Origin: a virus
Direction: 5' to 3' (one strand)
Virus genome (UHGV): UHGV-0146833
Length of the DNA stretch: 40,525 bases
The translations under genes and the position numbers were made by a program. Below are positions 2,249-19,288 of this stretch, one piece after another; the stretch's first letter is position 1; every line of letters begins with the position of its first letter. Under the pieces are notes generated by a model. That model saw only the letters and a program-made list of their open reading frames with translations. It was not told the origin of the DNA and did not search any database.

Positions 2249-3031
2249 CTATTTATTGGTGATTTCTGCTGGCTTTAGCTGCGCGGACAACTGCTCAAGT
2301 TTTTGAACTGCCAGTTCAAAATGCGCGGGTAACGCCTTTTCCAGATCAGAGTTGATATCGGTGATGGGCAAATCACCACACGACATACTCCGCCTACCAC
2401 CACGAACAACATCACGCAACAACTCTCGTTCATACGTGCGCATGTTCCCCAATGCCGACTCAGCAGCCGTCAAAATCCGGCGCAGTTCTGCCGTAATTGC
2501 TGGCAAATCATCAACAGTTATGGGGTTCGGGGATGGATTACGACACGCCCGACGCAAAGCCAACCATACACCGCTAATCCAGGCATTTCGGTATTGAAAA
2601 CTTTGTGCAATATCGTTAATCAGCCCTCGCAGATACTCCTTCTGCCTCCAGTTCAACGGCTCCGCTGCTCGCATTGGCTCTGGCTCGACGTAAACGTACT
2701 CTCCATTTTTGCGAATAGAGGGCAAGACTTCGTTCGTTACCCATTTGCGAAACCGCCAAGCTGTTGTGCCTTGCTTCACCGCGTCACGGCAGCGGAGGAT
2801 CAGGGTGTATAGACCTGACTCTGAAATAATATTTAGCTTTTGCTCTCCGCCAGGGGTGTAACTTAAAGTTACACCCTTTTCATCCTCATCCAGAGACATT
2901 AGCGCCTTCCGGGAGTTAACGAGTCTTAAAGCATCACATACATCCTTAGCCACAAACCACGGCTCACCGTTAATCATCACTACACGAATCTGATGCTCTT
3001 CCTGAAACGAAAATACAGCTAACGCGCTCAT
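2249..3031 (-). CDS. Bro-N / KilA-N domain antirepressor-like protein (AntC-like position)
   Basis: N-terminal motif FQEEHQIRVVMINGEPWFVAKDVCDAL is typical of the Bro-N family; last gene of a three-gene coupled operon next to telN. Confidence 0.75.
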   Translation of the reverse strand: MSALAVFSFQEEHQIRVVMINGEPWFVAKDVCDALRLVNSRKALMSLDEDEKGVTLSYTPGGEQKLNIISESGLYTLILRCRDAVKQGTTAWRFRKWVTNEVLPSIRKNGEYVYVEPEPMRAAEPLNWRQKEYLRGLINDIAQSFQYRNAWISGVWLALRRACRNPSPNPITVDDLPAITAELRRILTAAESALGNMRTYERELLRDVVRGGRRSMSCGDLPITDINSDLEKALPAHFELAVQKLEQLSAQLKPAEITNK

Positions 3032-3423: not shown

Positions 3424-3719
3424 GTATGCACTCCGTTTAATTGGTCGTGCTACCACCAGAGTTCTCACGCTCTTGAATGGTGGTAGCCCAAGCGGGGGTG
3501 AGAATACCGGCAAACGAAGAAACCGGCCTGACCGAAGTCAGCCCCGCCTGAGCCACCATAAATCGGATATGCGCAGGTATATACACACAAAAAAACACGC
3601 TGGCGCGTGTTGTGCGCTTCGTTTATCCGGGTTCTCACGCCCGGCTGCGGGATTTACCGCAGCGGAGTAACTTTACCGTCAAAACGACGCACACGTCAAT
3701 AATTTGCAAAGACATTTTA
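3424..3719 (-). promoter_or_regulatory. Structured non-coding leader upstream of the antirepressor operon; candidate promoter plus c4/CA-like regulatory RNA
   Basis: ~300 bp without a credible ORF; several inverted repeats (GCTACCACCA...TGGTGGTAGC; CTGCGG...CCGCAG; ACACGC...GCGTGT) and a repeated GTTCTCACGC motif. RNA assignment is by analogy with P1/N15 immunity regions, not shown. Confidence 0.25.
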
Positions 3720-9960: not shown

Positions 9961-10182
9961 ATGAAACCAGAAGAACTTATTCGCCACTTTGGCAGTGTAG
10001 AAAAAGCAGCGGCTGGGGTAGGTGTAACACCCGGTGCTGTTTACCAATGGTTAACCGCTGGAGAGATTCCTTCATTGCGGCAAAGTGATATTGAAGTTCG
10101 TACTGCTTACAAGCTGAAGAGTGACTTTACAACTCGGCGGGTAAAGCAGTCGATTAAGGAGAGCCGTAAGCGTGGAGCTTGA
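9961..10182 (+). CDS. cro: Cro-like HTH regulator
   Basis: 73 aa, HTH GVGVTPGAVYQWLTAGEIP; divergent from repressor. Confidence 0.8.
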   Translation: MKPEELIRHFGSVEKAAAGVGVTPGAVYQWLTAGEIPSLRQSDIEVRTAYKLKSDFTTRRVKQSIKESRKRGA

Positions 10183-10882
10183 GTATATACGCAGCTGCGT
10201 CTCTACGGCATTGGCTGATGTTCATTATCGCCAGCGTGGCATTCTGGAGGTCCAGCTTGAGCAGATGCGTCTCGGTAGATCAGGACGGTTTAACAATAAA
10301 CCAGTCCGGTTAATCAGTGTGGGGGATGATAACTCATACGAAGTGTCCGTTCCTGCTGAGCCGGTTAGATTCCACCAGGGGAAAACATTTAAACAATCAT
10401 CAATGTTGCTCACTGATATTGATTTTCAGAGCGCCAGCTGGCGCAGGGCTATTGGTCAGTTGAATAACGAGGAATCAGCCTGGCTTTATTATTGCTACGG
10501 ATGCAAGCCTGATTACAACAATGATGTGATTGTTTGTCAGTGGTTATGGCTTGATTTTCTGGTTGCTCATTCGGGGGGCGGCTTTAAAAAAATGAAGGCC
10601 TCCACGAAAAAAGCCATGCGGAAATTGATTTATTACGCGGCACAGCAGGTTAAATCAGAACTTACGTGTGCTGAGGCAGTTGATGAGAGAGAACAGGACA
10701 GGCATCTGAGTTTTCTACTGAATATATCTATTGATAGCTGGAGACAAGATTATAAAGAACGCTGGCTTTTAATTAAGTCGCGATGTCTGAGCTTAAATCG
10801 AACTGCATTATTAAATGCGGCGGAGAAGCGCAGTGAAATCATCAAACGCCATCGGGCAGGAAGTGCCATTCTGCCTTTGTAA
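10172..10882 (+). CDS. Hypothetical 236-aa protein; candidate late-gene antiterminator (Q-like) by position after cro
   Basis: GTG start with AAGGAG RBS, overlaps cro end; Cys cluster YYCYGC...C. Function inferred from N15 gene order only. Confidence 0.55.
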   Translation: MELEYIRSCVSTALADVHYRQRGILEVQLEQMRLGRSGRFNNKPVRLISVGDDNSYEVSVPAEPVRFHQGKTFKQSSMLLTDIDFQSASWRRAIGQLNNEESAWLYYCYGCKPDYNNDVIVCQWLWLDFLVAHSGGGFKKMKASTKKAMRKLIYYAAQQVKSELTCAEAVDEREQDRHLSFLLNISIDSWRQDYKERWLLIKSRCLSLNRTALLNAAEKRSEIIKRHRAGSAILPL

Positions 10883-14749: not shown

Positions 14750-15037
14750 TTAATAAACAGCGCGAATATTGATGGTTGCGCCGCAGGCATGAGCATATTT
14801 AGCCAAAGTTTTCATACTTGCCCCTAAAGGATTGCTTTCCAGGCGGCTGATGGCTGACGGGCGCAACCCCATTCGTTCAGCCAGAGCTGATTTCGTTAAA
14901 CCTGCTCTTTCCCTCATTTCGTATAACATTTCGACCATCTCCAGCTCTTTGTCGGCCTCTTCATATCCTTTGACGGCTTCTGGAGTGTTAAGAAGTTTTT
15001 CTTTTACTTCGTTAAACGGGATGCCTTTCGCTTTCAT
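14750..15037 (-). CDS. HTH (XRE-family) antitoxin, HigA-like
   Basis: 95 aa; HTH LTKSALAERMGLRPSAISRLE; start overlaps toxin stop (ATGA); toxin-first order typical of HigBA. Confidence 0.75.
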   Translation of the reverse strand: MKAKGIPFNEVKEKLLNTPEAVKGYEEADKELEMVEMLYEMRERAGLTKSALAERMGLRPSAISRLESNPLGASMKTLAKYAHACGATINIRAVY

Positions 15038-15348
15038 CAGTTCATCTCCTTCAGGCGAGTTCTGGCGATTTCGATAGCCTTCACCGGTGTTTTCTGTGTC
15101 TTTTTTACAAATGCATGCAATAGATAAATTTCGTTACCAGTCGCGTAGGCGTACAGCGTTCTTGCGATGTTTTTATCCCCTACTCGTAGTTCAAAAAGCC
15201 CTCCACCTATTACACGGCTATGGGGCATCTTCAGTTTGTTGCCTTCTTTCTCCAGTCGCTCAATTAATCTAGTCATGCGACCTCGCAAATCATCTGGTAG
15301 TTCAAGCAGTTCATTCAGTGCTGCAGGGTGGGTTATCACGTTAAACAT
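15037..15348 (-). CDS. RelE/ParE-superfamily toxin, HigB-like
   Basis: 103 aa from internal ATG with GGAGG RBS; fold-family assignment from overall pattern and the adjacent XRE antitoxin. Confidence 0.7.
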   Translation of the reverse strand: MFNVITHPAALNELLELPDDLRGRMTRLIERLEKEGNKLKMPHSRVIGGGLFELRVGDKNIARTLYAYATGNEIYLLHAFVKKTQKTPVKAIEIARTRLKEMN

Positions 15349-15407
15349 ATTATAGCCTCCATATCCATAAAATACACCAAAACAGGAAAACATAGCAAAT
15401 TAAAAAT

Positions 15408-15748: not shown

Positions 15749-15976
15749 ATGAATATTAATGAAATTCGTGGAAATATGACTGAAGCGGCCCTGAGTGTGG
15801 AATGTGTTATGCGTGGATACCCACGCATTTCCCTGAAAGAGTTAAGCGAAGCCTGTTTTTTGAGTCAAGCTGCCGTTGAATTTATCATCGAACAGATGAT
15901 CTGTTTTGGGGTTGCAAAGCGTAGCGGGTCTGGTCGATATTCTTTGACCGATGAATATAAGCAGGCAACTTTCTAA
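15749..15976 (+). CDS. Hypothetical protein (75 aa)
   Basis: GAGAGG RBS; ORF in track. Confidence 0.5.
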   Translation: MNINEIRGNMTEAALSVECVMRGYPRISLKELSEACFLSQAAVEFIIEQMICFGVAKRSGSGRYSLTDEYKQATF

Positions 15977-15982
15977 AAACTG

Positions 15983-15998
15983 TGCGACCACGGTCGCA
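15983..15998. repeat. Palindrome TGCGACC-AC-GGTCGCA (centromere-like family, copy 3 of 6; extended 22-bp symmetry CTGTGCGACC..GGTCGCACAG)
   Basis: Read directly, immediately after the stop of gene 15749..15976. Confidence 0.7.
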
Positions 15999-16018
15999 CA
16001 GCACAAAAACGAAAAAGC

Positions 16019-16047
16019 TTGGCAAAATGACGGTTTTTAGTTATTGT
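16019..16047 (+). promoter_or_regulatory. Sigma70-like promoter candidate TTGGCA-17-TATTGT, possible late promoter ahead of the methyltransferase-lysis-structural genes
   Basis: Hexamers and 17-bp spacing read directly; followed by hairpins and a terminator within ~80 bp, a layout reminiscent of lambdoid pR'/qut/tR'. Confidence 0.3.
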
Positions 16048-16085
16048 TTTGCTAAGTTGGGTTTTTTGTACCCAACAGCCAACAA

Positions 16086-16108
16086 GCCGCCTTTATGGCG
16101 GTTTTTTT
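16086..16108 (+). terminator. Rho-independent terminator (GCCGCC-TTTAT-GGCGG plus T7)
   Basis: GC stem and TTTTTTT run read directly; a further 10-bp-stem hairpin lies at 16126-16151. Confidence 0.55.
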
Positions 16109-16243
16109 GTGCCTGAAAAGTGGGCGCAGGACAAGTTGCAGCTTGTCCTGCGGTCAACCCATGCCAGAGCTATAGGCTGAACCCAAAGCCCACCCGCGAT
16201 GCGCATCGCCGGGTTAGCTTACCCAGGCAAAAAAATAATAGCT

Positions 16244-17320
16244 ATGTTCAAAACCACTAATATTCATGGCGCACAACTCGTTTGCGCAGATTCTCTGCAA
16301 TTTATCAAAACCATCCCTGATAACTCGGTCAATTTGATTGCAACAGACCCACCATACTTCGGCGTAAAGGCTAACGCATGGGATAACCAGTGGGATAGCG
16401 ATGCTGACTTTTTGGGGTGGATTGACGAATTTTTGGCAGAATTTTGGCGGATATTGGCCCCTAATGGCAGCCTGTATATGTTTACCGGCTCTCGCCTTGC
16501 GTCAAAAATTGAATTATTAACTCGCGATCGTTTCAATGTTCTGAACCATATCATTTGGGCTAAACCCAGTGGTATGTGGCGCGGTTGTCATAAAGAAAGT
16601 TTAAGGGCTTATTTTCCTGCTACTGAAAGAATATTATTTGCAGAGCATTACGGCGCGTCAGGTTATGCTAAAGGTCAGTCAGGTTATGCTTCAAAATGTG
16701 CAGATTTAAGAAAAAATATTTTTTCTCCACTAATTGATGCTTTTTCGCTGGCTCGCCGTCAGTTAGATATATCAGCCGCAGACATTAATTCAGCGACAGG
16801 AAAGCAGATGTGTTCGCACTGGTTTTCTTATTCGCAGTGGCGGCTTCCATCATTAATTGATTTTAATAAACTATGCGAATTATTTCGCAGGAAGGCAGAT
16901 TCACTCGGTGTCCCGTGTCCATATCCTTTTAATGTTGATTATTCAGAACATGAAAAGTGTTATAGCGATCTGAAATTGCATTATGAGGAAGTAAAGAAGC
17001 AGTATGATGATTTGAAGGCTCAGTATGAAAATTTGCGTCGCCCATTTCATGTTACTGCAGATGTGCCTTATACCGATGTATGGGAGTTTCCTCCTGTGCA
17101 ATATTATCCTGGCAAGCACCCATGTGAAAAACCTGCAGCGATGATGGAACATATTATAAAGAGTAGTTCACGCCCCGGGGATATCGTTGCCGATTTCTTT
17201 ATGGGATCAGGCTCAACTATTAAAGCTGCGCTGAAGTTAGGACGTCAGGCAATAGGTATTGAGATTGAGAGCGAACGTTATCTTCAGACAGTTGATGAAG
17301 TGAAAAAGTTATTTGAGTAA
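16244..17320 (+). CDS. DNA N6-adenine/N4-cytosine methyltransferase (beta-class, DPPY catalytic motif)
   Basis: ATDPPYF near the N-terminus and FFMGSGST (AdoMet-binding FxGxG) near the C-terminus, a motif order typical of beta-class amino-methyltransferases; no restriction endonuclease partner adjacent. Confidence 0.8.
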   Translation: MFKTTNIHGAQLVCADSLQFIKTIPDNSVNLIATDPPYFGVKANAWDNQWDSDADFLGWIDEFLAEFWRILAPNGSLYMFTGSRLASKIELLTRDRFNVLNHIIWAKPSGMWRGCHKESLRAYFPATERILFAEHYGASGYAKGQSGYASKCADLRKNIFSPLIDAFSLARRQLDISAADINSATGKQMCSHWFSYSQWRLPSLIDFNKLCELFRRKADSLGVPCPYPFNVDYSEHEKCYSDLKLHYEEVKKQYDDLKAQYENLRRPFHVTADVPYTDVWEFPPVQYYPGKHPCEKPAAMMEHIIKSSSRPGDIVADFFMGSGSTIKAALKLGRQAIGIEIESERYLQTVDEVKKLFE

Positions 17321-17415
17321 CTGGAGAATATATTCCCCTGCCGTTTTTGGTAGGGGTTATTTTCATCATATAGTTTCCAAGCCGAAACCTCAGCAACTAT
17401 TGCGAGGTAAGAGAT

Positions 17416-17688
17416 ATGAAGATGGATGAACGATACAGCAGTGCATCTTATGGTAGCGCTGGTCTTGCTGCGTTCTTTGCCAGCCTGTCATTGCAGGATT
17501 GGGGCTTCATTATCGGTGTCGCGTTCAGCATTATCCTCGGTGTGCTTACATACCGGCTCAATAAACGCGAGCAGATGAAGCGCACGAAGATATTGCAGGA
17601 CTTATTGGATAAAACTAATACCAATAATCTTTCTGCTACAGCGATGGTTATTGGAGAGCTGGGGAAGAGAGCACCGAAGGAAATATGA
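17416..17688 (+). CDS. Holin (class II / pinholin-like, 90 aa)
   Basis: Two adjacent hydrophobic segments; immediately upstream of and overlapping the endolysin. Confidence 0.65.
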
Positions 17689-18185
17689 TGCAGTCATCAT
17701 TACGCAAAGCTGTCACAGCTGCTATTGGTGGCGGGGCTATTGCCATAGCGTCTATGCTCATCACTGGCCCAAGTGGTAACGATGGTCTGGAAGGTGTAAG
17801 ACATAATCCTTACAAAGACATAGTTGGTGTATGGACTGTATGTTACGGGCATACAGGAAAAGACATCATTCCCGGTAAAACGTATACCGAAGCAGAATGC
17901 AAAGCCCTCCTGAATAAAGACCTTGCCACGGTCGCCAGACAAATTAACCCGTACATCAAAGTCGATATACCGGAAACAACGCGCGGCGCTCTTTACTCGT
18001 TCGTTTACAACGTGGGCGCTGGTAATTTCAGAACATCGACGCTTCTTCGCAAAATAAACCAGGGCGATATCAAAGGCGCATGTGATCAGCTACGTCGCTG
18101 GATATCTGCTGGCGGTAAGCAATGGAAAGGCCTGATGACTCGTCGTGAGATTGAGCGTGAAGTCTGTTTGTGGGGTCAACAATGA
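17685..18185 (+). CDS. R: SAR-type endolysin (phage lysozyme, phage 21 R-like)
   Basis: N-terminal Gly/Ala-rich signal-anchor [20 protein letters not shown] followed by the lysozyme catalytic region; close to remembered phage 21 R sequence. Confidence 0.85.
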
Positions 18186-18619
18186 GCAGGGTAACCGCGA
18201 TTATCTCCGCTCTGGTTATTTGCATCATCGTCTGCCTGTCGTGGGCTGTTAATCATTACCGTGATAACGCCATCGCCTACAAAGAGCAGCGCGATAAAGC
18301 CACATCCACAATCGCTGATATGCAGAAGCGTCAACGTGACGTAGCAGAACTCGATGCCAGATATACAAAGGAGCTTGCTGATGCTAACGCGACTATCGAA
18401 AGCCTCCGTGCTGATGTTTCTGCTGGGCGTAAGCGCCTGCAAGTCGCCGCCACCTGTGCAAAGTCAACGACCGGAGCCAGCGGCATGGGCAATGGAGAAA
18501 GCCCAAGACTTACAGCAGATGCTGAACTCAATTATTACCGTCTCCGAAGTGGGATCGACAGGATAACTGCGCAGGTTAACTACTTGCAGGAATACATCAA
18601 GACGCAATGCCTGAATTAA
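18182..18619 (+). CDS. Rz: Inner-membrane spanin Rz
   Basis: ATG overlapping the endolysin stop; N-terminal TM helix then coiled coil; position after endolysin. Confidence 0.8.
18381..18566 (+). CDS. Rz1: Outer-membrane lipoprotein spanin Rz1, embedded in Rz in the +1 frame
   Basis: Signal peptide ending in lipobox-like LLGVSAC followed by a Pro-rich segment [12 protein letters not shown]; fully nested in Rz. Confidence 0.7.
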
Positions 18620-18972: not shown

Positions 18973-18992
18973 AAATCTCTTTGTTTCTCGTT

Positions 18993-19020: not shown

Positions 19021-19288
19021 CGCTGTATCGTCGCTGTATTCCCGCATTAACCATGACCGTAGCCCGACGGGGAACTCATCTGCGCGAGTGTGCGGAAATA
19101 ATCAAAAACGATGCACACCGGGTTTTTACCGCGCTAATGATTCGCGGGTTTGCCCCTAACGCTCGCCAGTCCTGTGCGAGGGTGGAAGAAACAGGGCATG
19201 TATTCAGGAGCGTGCGACCGTGGTCGCACGGTATCTTTGTCAGGAGGTTTTGATGAAAGAGTTGCAAAAAATTAATTCAATAATGGAA
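19021..19288 (+). repeat. Direct repeat copy 1 (~268 bp, ~96% identical to 20804-21071); contains palindrome copy 5 (19213-19228), an RBS and the first 12 codons of gene 19253
   Basis: Base-by-base alignment of the two copies at a constant offset of 1783 bp. Confidence 0.85.

Follow-up and report, generated by a model that had tools for sequence, protein, structure and literature searches.

The window analysed here (UHGV virus genome UHGV-0146833; the whole stretch of 40,525 nucleotides, one strand, 5′ to 3′) encodes a protelomerase (181–2076; four TelK/ResT Pfam domains), a 1331-residue replication protein, a cI-like repressor, cro and a Q antiterminator. Region 15700–17500 matches Escherichia phages PhiR46_1 and YDC107_1 at 98% identity and N15 at 76%, and these identities, together with the protelomerase and the gene content, identify the window as an N15-like linear phage-plasmid. 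We describe positions 15982–17415, which we read with good confidence, taken as a whole, as the late-operon control region of this phage-plasmid, comprising a Q-dependent late switch, an orphan DNA methyltransferase (methylase) gene and, between the two, a conserved structure predicted to act as a small antisense RNA. The features on which the argument turns are listed below, with the helices of the structure (P1–P4) given in plus-strand coordinates.

10172–10882, plus strand: Q antiterminator gene of the Q82 family (PF06323, E=2e-84)
15982–15999, no strand: Sop-type centromere palindrome GTGCGACC-AC-GGTCGCAC, 20 bp upstream of the −35
16019–16047, plus strand: late promoter, −35 TTGGCA, 17-bp spacer, −10 TATTGT (consensus scan, 9/12 matches)
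16053–16061, plus strand: sigma-dependent-pause-like element TAAGTT + GGG, 5 bp after the −10
16056–16076, plus strand: first hairpin of the short late transcript, GTTGGGT/ACCCAAC, part of the minimum-free-energy (MFE) fold of 16054–16112
16084–16110, plus strand: intrinsic terminator of the late-promoter transcript, 8-bp stem at 16084–16104 with five G-C pairs, T-run to ~16110
16112–16212, minus strand: small RNA predicted to fold into a 5′ hairpin plus three-way junction, antisense to the late leader (covariance models, covariation, MFE)
16120–16125 / 16188–16193: P1, closing helix, UGGGC/GCCCA
16126–16135 / 16142–16151: P2, long variable hairpin
16154–16162 / 16172–16180: P3, second helix
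16196–16200 / 16205–16209: P4, hairpin
16216–16221, minus strand: predicted −10 hexamer of the antisense RNA, TAAGCT, an extended −10-like motif upstream of the 5′ hairpin
16244–17320, plus strand: orphan beta-class N6-adenine DNA methyltransferase, M.EcoGII-like, 358 residues (PF01555, E=7e-47)
17335–17366, plus strand: terminator between methylase and holin, 9-bp stem with six G-C pairs

A 130-bp segment between the late terminator and the methylase (16113–16243) is conserved far beyond the N15-like phages, and the element it contains is kept in loci without the N15-type promoter and terminator. With 28 lambdoid copies aligned by MAFFT alone, 90.4% of cells paired on the plus strand and 13 pairs showed double changes, a score reached by none of 500 shuffles; the same seeds read on the minus strand gave 96.3% and 11 pairs, again beyond all 500 shuffles. 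Double changes rose to 30 of 31 pairs (plus) and 28 of 31 (minus) in model-based alignments, which lean towards the structure used to build them and to that extent count less in its favour. Scanning IMG/VR with two conserved words added ~75 further copies, whose variable stems carry clear compensatory changes; P3 occurs as TTCGCCCGT/ACGGGCGAA, TTAGCT/AGCTAA or TTTCA(G)CCC/GGGTGAAA. Two covariance models, R1 built from lambdoid copies only and R2 for the minus strand, both recover the window copy (R1, 16115–16230, 44 bits, E=2e-9; R2, 47.8 bits, E=5e-9), which is the only one in the window when the model search is run with filters off. R1 also finds N15, phiKO2, PY54 (61 bits), SfV (119 bits) and Stx2a_WGPS2 (95 bits), whereas 78 genomic decoy loci containing both anchor words reach at most 18.7 bits. 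We are highly confident that a conserved structure exists at this position. Rfam 15 returned no match to the element on either strand in the window, SfV, Stx2a_WGPS2, phage 1720a-02, PY54, phiKO2 or lambda, and literature searches found no description of it, an earlier one being possible in papers beyond their reach.

Several candidate procedures, folds and relatives were set aside. RNAalifold on a plain MAFFT alignment of all groups found P1 alone, with the variable hairpins misaligned, and was replaced by the narrow seed and covariance models; an anchor-word pattern scan of genome contigs for taxonomic range was swamped by chance matches (2 of 80 loci real), though it still supplied a decoy control. 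The helix ‘P1a’, in which UGGG pairs with a proximal CCCAU, is favoured by single-sequence folding of the plus strand, but covariation places the proximal CCCAU in P3. A pseudoknot joining (C)GUGA of the plus-strand 5′ flank to UCAC in the P3 loop showed one compensatory event only and became moot once the strand had been assigned. The AgvB and AsxR anti-small RNAs of enterohaemorrhagic Escherichia coli prophages are different, being 51–60 nt long and located 3′ of a moron gene rather than in a leader (PMC4104026).

The minus strand is favoured as the functional one because of covariation and the asymmetry between G·U and A·C pairs. Read as plus-strand RNA, the alignment contains 147 A·C or C·A combinations against 29 G·U or U·G, spread over many pairs and lineages, so that the wobble pairs lie on the minus strand; a plus-strand 5′ untranslated region or riboswitch was dropped as the main model for this reason. 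The reverse complement is the more stable in 58 of 60 sequences (mean MFE −48.5 versus −40.2 kcal/mol). With the minus-strand model, 64 copies show 96.7% of cells paired versus 89.4% on the plus strand, the difference being marked in P3 (97.9% versus 79.7%), and the covariation score is 0.574 against 0.191 for shuffled alignments, with slid controls at 36–49% paired. In the window, the minus-strand MFE structure is the consensus fold (−50.7 kcal/mol, z −4.0), whereas the plus-strand MFE structure differs from it. Taken together, the structure probably acts as a minus-strand RNA.

Conserved flanks of the structure are compatible with a transcription unit in this orientation. The plus-strand tail GAGCCTAYCA is TGRTAGGCTC on the minus strand and fits an extended −10 (TG-n-T-A-n-n-n-T) with its five key positions invariant or nearly so in the seeds; the hexamer varies (TAAGCT, TAGACT, TAGGAT, TAGTAT, TACACT and others) and stands 5–7 nt before the 5′ hairpin in nearly all lineages. 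At the other end, the conserved plus-strand GAAA(A) before P1 becomes a U-run after the closing helix, GCCCA-UUU(U)C being present in all lineages, and 7 nt past this U-run the window also holds the late terminator in reverse orientation. These signals would delimit an antisense RNA gene with a predicted transcript of ~100 nt, from ~16210 to ~16112. A number of points weigh against this gene model. The window copy of the extended −10 lacks the T of TG; the consensus promoter scan did not report the predicted promoter in the window or SfV, and its −35 is weak; the conserved GGC inside the hexamer is left unexplained by −10 function; and the U-run is only 3–5 nt long and follows a branched structure rather than a simple hairpin. 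A gap of ~34 nt also separates the predicted RNA from the methylase start codon, which makes direct occlusion of the ribosome site unlikely, and in some relatives a LexA-box-like site lies beside or over the predicted promoter, which makes a poor fit to a simple model in which the RNA is on in lysogens.

The element occurs in late leaders downstream of genes from all three Q families: PF03589 in SfV and lambda-like contigs, PF06530 in Stx2a_WGPS2, and PF06323 in N15-like and other contigs. Copies found by BLAST lie in phages of Escherichia, Shigella, Klebsiella, Citrobacter, Morganella, Providencia, Hafnia, Pantoea and Pectobacterium, and model matches add Yersinia phage PY54 and Enterobacter and Citrobacter genomes; counting the SfV-type copy alone, 1057 of 5426 complete E. 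coli genomes carry the element, without an RNA being annotated there. The next plus-strand gene is usually an M.EcoGII-like methylase, but in one group it is a C5 methylase, in another a Mu-Com-like zinc-finger open reading frame (ORF) followed by a methylase, and in two groups a lambda-S-like holin directly. Stx2a_WGPS2 and phage 1720a-02 both run from Q through a small ORF, the motif, the methylase and tRNAs to stx2 (the motif and methylase lying between Q and the ileZ-argN-argO tRNAs plus stx2AB; locus L203, 2790–5820, and L206, respectively). As the element lies between Q and stx2AB, every toxin-making late transcript crosses it.

Two further variants were observed. The Mu-Com-like ORF (MTLLKELRCPHCNKLLCRHSGSVEVKCSRCKNIVKR) separates the motif from a TTG-initiated methylase in L034 (2828–2941) and also in L036, L068, L076 and L096, and the Shine–Dalgarno sequence of that methylase sits in a hairpin loop, which suggests translational control in the style of Com/mom in this group. 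The lambda record (NC_001416, 45013–45158) holds a degenerate copy just upstream of S (17–23 bits), in which P2 (GGCAGGAGGT...ACCTCCTGCC, then GTTTT) and P3 are retained and the 3′ strand of P1 is lost.

The promoter, the strong terminator just downstream of it, and the holin, endolysin and Rz genes beyond the methylase, all described in an earlier note on this DNA, were recovered, the first two by consensus scan and the lysis genes by Pfam. The first of the hairpins that the note had also reported (15982–15999) is a copy of the centromere palindrome and not an RNA hairpin. Taken alone, a 9/12 match is at chance level, with nine promoter-like sites this good in 5 kb against 9.2 expected in shuffles. 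The late promoter is nevertheless credible because its position is conserved in 13 diverged N15-like loci (ten IMG/VR contigs with methylases 59–87% identical, besides the window, N15 and phiKO2) and a homologous site is annotated in N15 and phiKO2. Across these loci the −35 (TTGGCA, TTGCAA or TTGATA), the −10 (TATnnT), the motif TAAGTTGG(G/C) and the terminator stem are kept, and the spacers diverge. The motif, five bases past the −10, is nearly invariant between variable flanks and forms the most conserved stretch of the module apart from the terminator. Lambda PR′ has the same geometry of −10 and pause element (TAAATT, 6 nt, AACGAT GGG), and on this account TAAGTT GGG in the window is read as a putative lambda-PR′-like sigma-dependent pause element. 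The short transcript 16054–16112 is predicted to fold into two hairpins (−25.6 kcal/mol, z −4.5); the CCGCC/GGCGG stem and T7 run of the terminator are invariant in the 13 loci and are preceded by a variable hairpin. This first hairpin shows no covariation in relatives, its only changes being one-sided and to G·U, a point that weighs against the proposed late switch.

In the N15 record, gene 52 (‘DNA methyltransferase’) is preceded by a marked −35, −10 and rho-independent terminator and followed by a second terminator, the holin and the lysozyme; in that of phiKO2, a ‘putative plasmid partitioning site’ comes first, followed by a ‘putative late promoter’, a terminator and the Gp52 methyltransferase. 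With homologous sites already annotated in both, the promoter–terminator–methylase module is a known one, and the finding of the earlier note is correct and ordinary, a known module in a new relative. What goes beyond it is the putative pause element, the centromere site, the revised start of the methylase gene and, most of all, the predicted structured RNA on the opposite strand.

PF06323 is the Q82 family of Q antiterminators, one of three Q families, and a Q-dependent cassette is defined with a sigma-dependent pause element on which Q loads (PMC9388147). The window Q is 66.5% identical to that of N15. It was placed ~6 kb from the promoter, as in N15, by the earlier note; the measured distance is 5.1 kb upstream, and the N15-like remote position is correct (5.4 kb in N15). 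A Q-dependent late-promoter cassette is supported at the sequence level by a Q82-family Q, a conserved sigma-70-type promoter, a pause-like element, an invariant terminator and late genes. Against Q dependence, the 5.1-kb gap holds ~15 ORFs, so Q is not directly upstream of its target, and no Q-binding motif could be assigned near the pause element in the 13-locus alignment. E. coli-type and Klebsiella-type loci do not share the promoter spacer or the A-rich tract upstream. A Q82-type protein thus appears here paired with a lambda-like pause geometry, a combination that would make a handy natural variant for working out how Q82 loads.

The palindrome beside the promoter belongs to a set of six window copies of GTGCGACC-NN-GGTCGCAC (8649, 11092, 15982, 18992, 19212 and 20995; 0.13 expected), and the site annotated in phiKO2 as a ‘putative plasmid partitioning site’ is its homolog. 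A palindrome stands at the same place in 11 of the 13 relatives, in three flavours (GTGCGACC-NN-GGTCGCAC, TTGGGACC-NN-GGTCCCAA and GTGGGGCC-AT-GGCCCCAC), and Klebsiella-type relatives carry TGGGACC-AC-GGTCCCA at that spot, which matches the core of F sopC. Like F sopC and the dispersed N15 centromere sites (IR1–IR4), these are inverted repeats with 7–8-bp arms and a 2-bp centre; unlike in F, the arm sequence is GTGCGACC and the sopAB genes are absent from the window. N15 reportedly has four such palindromes, and the window has six. The N15 Sop system was reported to facilitate late gene expression by Ravin, Rech and Lane in 2008 (cited in PMC11652158), and a Sop centromere abutting the promoter may likewise link partition proteins to late expression here. 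Among the other copies, one lies inside the replication gene, and those at 18992 and 19212 flank the end of the lysis cluster; the copy at 19212 is also scored as a terminator-like hairpin.

The methylase carries DPPY at residues 35–38 and F-M-G-S-G at residues 319–323 of its 358-residue form, confirming the beta-class amino-methyltransferase that had been recognised before, and PF01555 matches residues 44–362 of a longer, 373-residue form. The ATG at 16244 is the start conserved in relatives, whereas the ATG at 16199 falls inside the conserved RNA hairpin, and translation most likely begins at 16244. The best solved relative is M.RsrI. Over its full length (357 residues) the phage 1720a-02 methylase is 57% identical to the window protein (E=6e-149), and likeness to M.EcoGII is judged through this enzyme, not through the M.EcoGII sequence itself. 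The 1720a-02 enzyme is very similar to the non-specific adenine methylase M.EcoGII, which is prophage-borne and silent in lysogens; expression of M.EcoGII slows growth, and it probably comes on during the lytic cycle to overcome restriction (Murray et al., PMC5778455). At 57% identity, non-specificity of the window enzyme is not to be assumed. Like M.EcoGII, it has the beta-class order DPPY ... FxGxG and ~350 residues and is prophage-borne at the head of the late region. The suggestion of the earlier note that a late methylase may protect progeny DNA matches the proposal made for M.EcoGII relatives (PMC5778455). Its observation that no endonuclease adjoins the gene also stands: the methylase is considered solitary because its neighbours are a small winged helix-turn-helix gene and the holin, and terminators bracket it.

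In N15 (NC_001901), an ORF from the conserved ATG (record 41387–42475) is intact and 84% identical to the window protein, and the annotated gene 52 product (284 residues from 41621, without the N-terminal 78 residues including DPPY) is therefore truncated. Most relatives have a LexA-box-like CTGT-N8-ACAG (for example ATACTGTAAAAATAAACAGTG) within the first 30 nt of the methylase ORF, as in SfV (locus L204, 2637–2670), loci L003 and L028, and most lambdoid and Klebsiella-type loci; the window and N15 are without it. In the C5-methylase group, TACTGTATAAATGACCAGTA overlaps the predicted antisense promoter (locus L083, ~3425–3445).

From these elements the following mechanism can be proposed. The constitutive sigma-70 promoter at 16019–16047 would start a transcript at ~16054, and RNA polymerase would pause at the −10-like TAAGTT GGG at its very start. 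Without Q, transcription would stop at 16084–16110 and leave a two-hairpin RNA of ~55 nt; with the Q82-family Q, it would read through into the methylase, past the second terminator and into the lysis and virion genes. As the methylase would be reached only by such read-through, progeny DNA would, on this proposal, be methylated only in lytic growth. The antisense RNA would be complementary to the late-mRNA leader of any read-through transcript. In lysogens it may pair with leaky read-through and keep the toxic methylase and lysis genes off, and during lytic growth head-on Q-driven transcription would overrun its gene. Because the targets harm the host if leaked (a growth-inhibiting methylase and a holin), a fail-safe, type-I-antitoxin-like or sar-like role in the lysogen is favoured among possible functions, and we advance it tentatively, as a real possibility rather than a probability. 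The antisense RNA STnc6030 of phage BTP1 excludes related superinfecting phages (PMC7067206), and by analogy such exclusion could be a function here too, which would suit the fast-evolving stems. The fullest reading, that this is a previously undescribed family of ~100-nt antisense RNAs in late leaders of N15-like and lambdoid phages of Enterobacterales, acting as a fail-safe and/or a sequence-specific superinfection barrier, is quite possible, if still short of probable.

The same structure could serve the plus strand as a cis-regulatory leader of the methylase and lysis mRNA, be it a riboswitch-like or protein-binding 5′ untranslated region, a processing site or an mRNA stabiliser. The element always lies directly upstream of the first late ORF, whether methylase, C5 methylase, com-like gene or holin, the methylase has no obvious Shine–Dalgarno sequence, and the plus-strand fold, too, is more stable than that of shuffles (z −4.2), with 89.4% of cells paired and double changes at 30 of 31 pairs. 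Such a leader is nonetheless unlikely, given the 147 A·C or C·A mismatches against 29 G·U with wobble on the minus strand, the weaker P3 pairing (79.7% on plus, 97.9% on minus), and a plus-strand MFE structure that pairs UGGG with the proximal CCCAU where the minus strand gives the conserved fold; the conserved tail and 5′ GAAA are, moreover, accounted for as minus-strand −10 and U-run. Strand asymmetry is equally compatible with minus-strand single-stranded DNA, where G·T wobble is tolerated, for example in a priming or assembly signal of late rolling-circle replication; P4 is often a perfect loopless palindrome in many lineages, and the scan calls no strong promoter. This we regard as very unlikely, since there is no known reason for strand-specific single-stranded DNA here in lambdoid or N15-like replication, TGnTAnnnT at a fixed upstream distance and the downstream U-run fit a transcription unit, and the element is found with late-operon leaders rather than with replication genes.

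A different question is whether the promoter–terminator unit is chiefly the gene of a trans-acting small RNA of ~55 nt like StxS, with Q read-through secondary or starting elsewhere. The two-hairpin transcript with its terminator and U-tail is predicted to be stable (z −4.5), the transcribed part is the most conserved of the module and the only part alignable with PY54, and StxS, produced from the PR′ of a Stx phage, indicates that early-terminated PR′ transcripts can be regulatory RNAs (PMC7547250). It remains doubtful that this is the unit's main role: a small RNA is compatible with the Q model and not exclusive of it, hairpin 1 lacks covariation, and Rfam gives only sub-threshold matches, AgrB (26.8 bits) and RNAI (20.2 bits), which depend mostly on the terminator. 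As for the methylase, PF01555 includes many enzymes of restriction–modification systems, and M.RsrI is the closest solved relative, so the gene might be half of such a system or of another defence system instead of an orphan anti-restriction enzyme. We consider this highly improbable, because the neighbours are a winged helix-turn-helix gene and a holin, two terminators bracket the gene, the same place (Q ... methylase, lysis) is occupied in SfV, Stx2 phages, 1720a-02, N15, phiKO2 and PY54, and M.EcoGII, kin of the 57%-identical 1720a-02 enzyme, is prophage-borne and non-specific (PMC5778455).

The preferred reading, a Q-dependent late switch with an opposing antisense RNA, can be compared with known systems. 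The window shares with N15 and phiKO2 the order gp50, gp51, centromere palindrome, −35/−10, terminator, methylase, terminator, holin, lysozyme and Rz, with 76–84% DNA identity to N15 in the late region, but neither record marks a pause element or an antisense RNA. Like lambda PR′–qut–tR′ (and phages 82 and 21), it has a promoter, a −10-like pause element with GGG, a terminator and late genes; unlike the lambda cassette, its Q lies 5.1 kb away rather than adjacent and is of the 82 family, and a partition site abuts the promoter. The terminated late transcript of lambda is the 194-nt 6S RNA, and that of the window, at ~55 nt, is shorter. The predicted antisense RNA resembles P22 sar, lambda OOP, antitoxin RNAs of the hok/sok type and STnc6030 (PMC7067206) in being a small structured RNA opposite the leader of genes kept off in the lysogen, with a predicted promoter that converges with a strong phage promoter. 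It differs from them in having no sequence or Rfam relationship to them, a three-way junction with variable stems and conserved junctions, and no overlap with the ribosome-binding site in the window. The part already described in the earlier note matters little, being a further copy of an annotated module with a methylase of a characterised family. If the antisense RNA gene is real, it would bring a hitherto unrecognised level of control into the classic Q-antitermination switch and would explain the silence of a growth-inhibiting non-specific methylase and of lysis genes in prophages despite a constitutive late promoter; upstream of stx2 in one class of Shiga-toxin phages, it could influence toxin output.

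The remaining neighbours of the late region are as follows.

15749–15976, plus strand: gene of a gp51-like small winged-helix protein, 75 residues (phrog_331, E=3e-32; weak HTH_24 match)
17416–17688, plus strand: holin (weak Pfam match)
17685–18185, plus strand: lysozyme (Phage_lysozyme, E=2e-47)
18170–18619, plus strand: Rz (Phage_lysis, E=8e-37)

A homolog of the terminator between methylase and holin is already annotated in the N15, phiKO2 and SfV records. The gp51-like protein is a weak pairwise relative of SfV orf47 (locus L204, 2293–2487; 28% identity, E=8e-4). In lambdoid phages the orf47-type gene ends a few bases before the RNA motif, and N15-like phages have the centromere, promoter and terminator interposed between the gp51 gene and the motif. 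Just upstream of gp50/gp51 lies a minus-strand toxin–antitoxin pair (14750–15393), with a Gp49/HigB-like toxin (15037–15393) and a helix-turn-helix antitoxin (14750–15037), like N15 genes 48/49. Above-threshold Rfam matches in the window are C4 antisense RNA (82 bits, 3476–3563, minus strand) and isrK (64 bits, 3590–3663, minus strand), which adjoin a Bro-N protein gene (2249–3031) in an arrangement resembling the N15 antirepressor locus.

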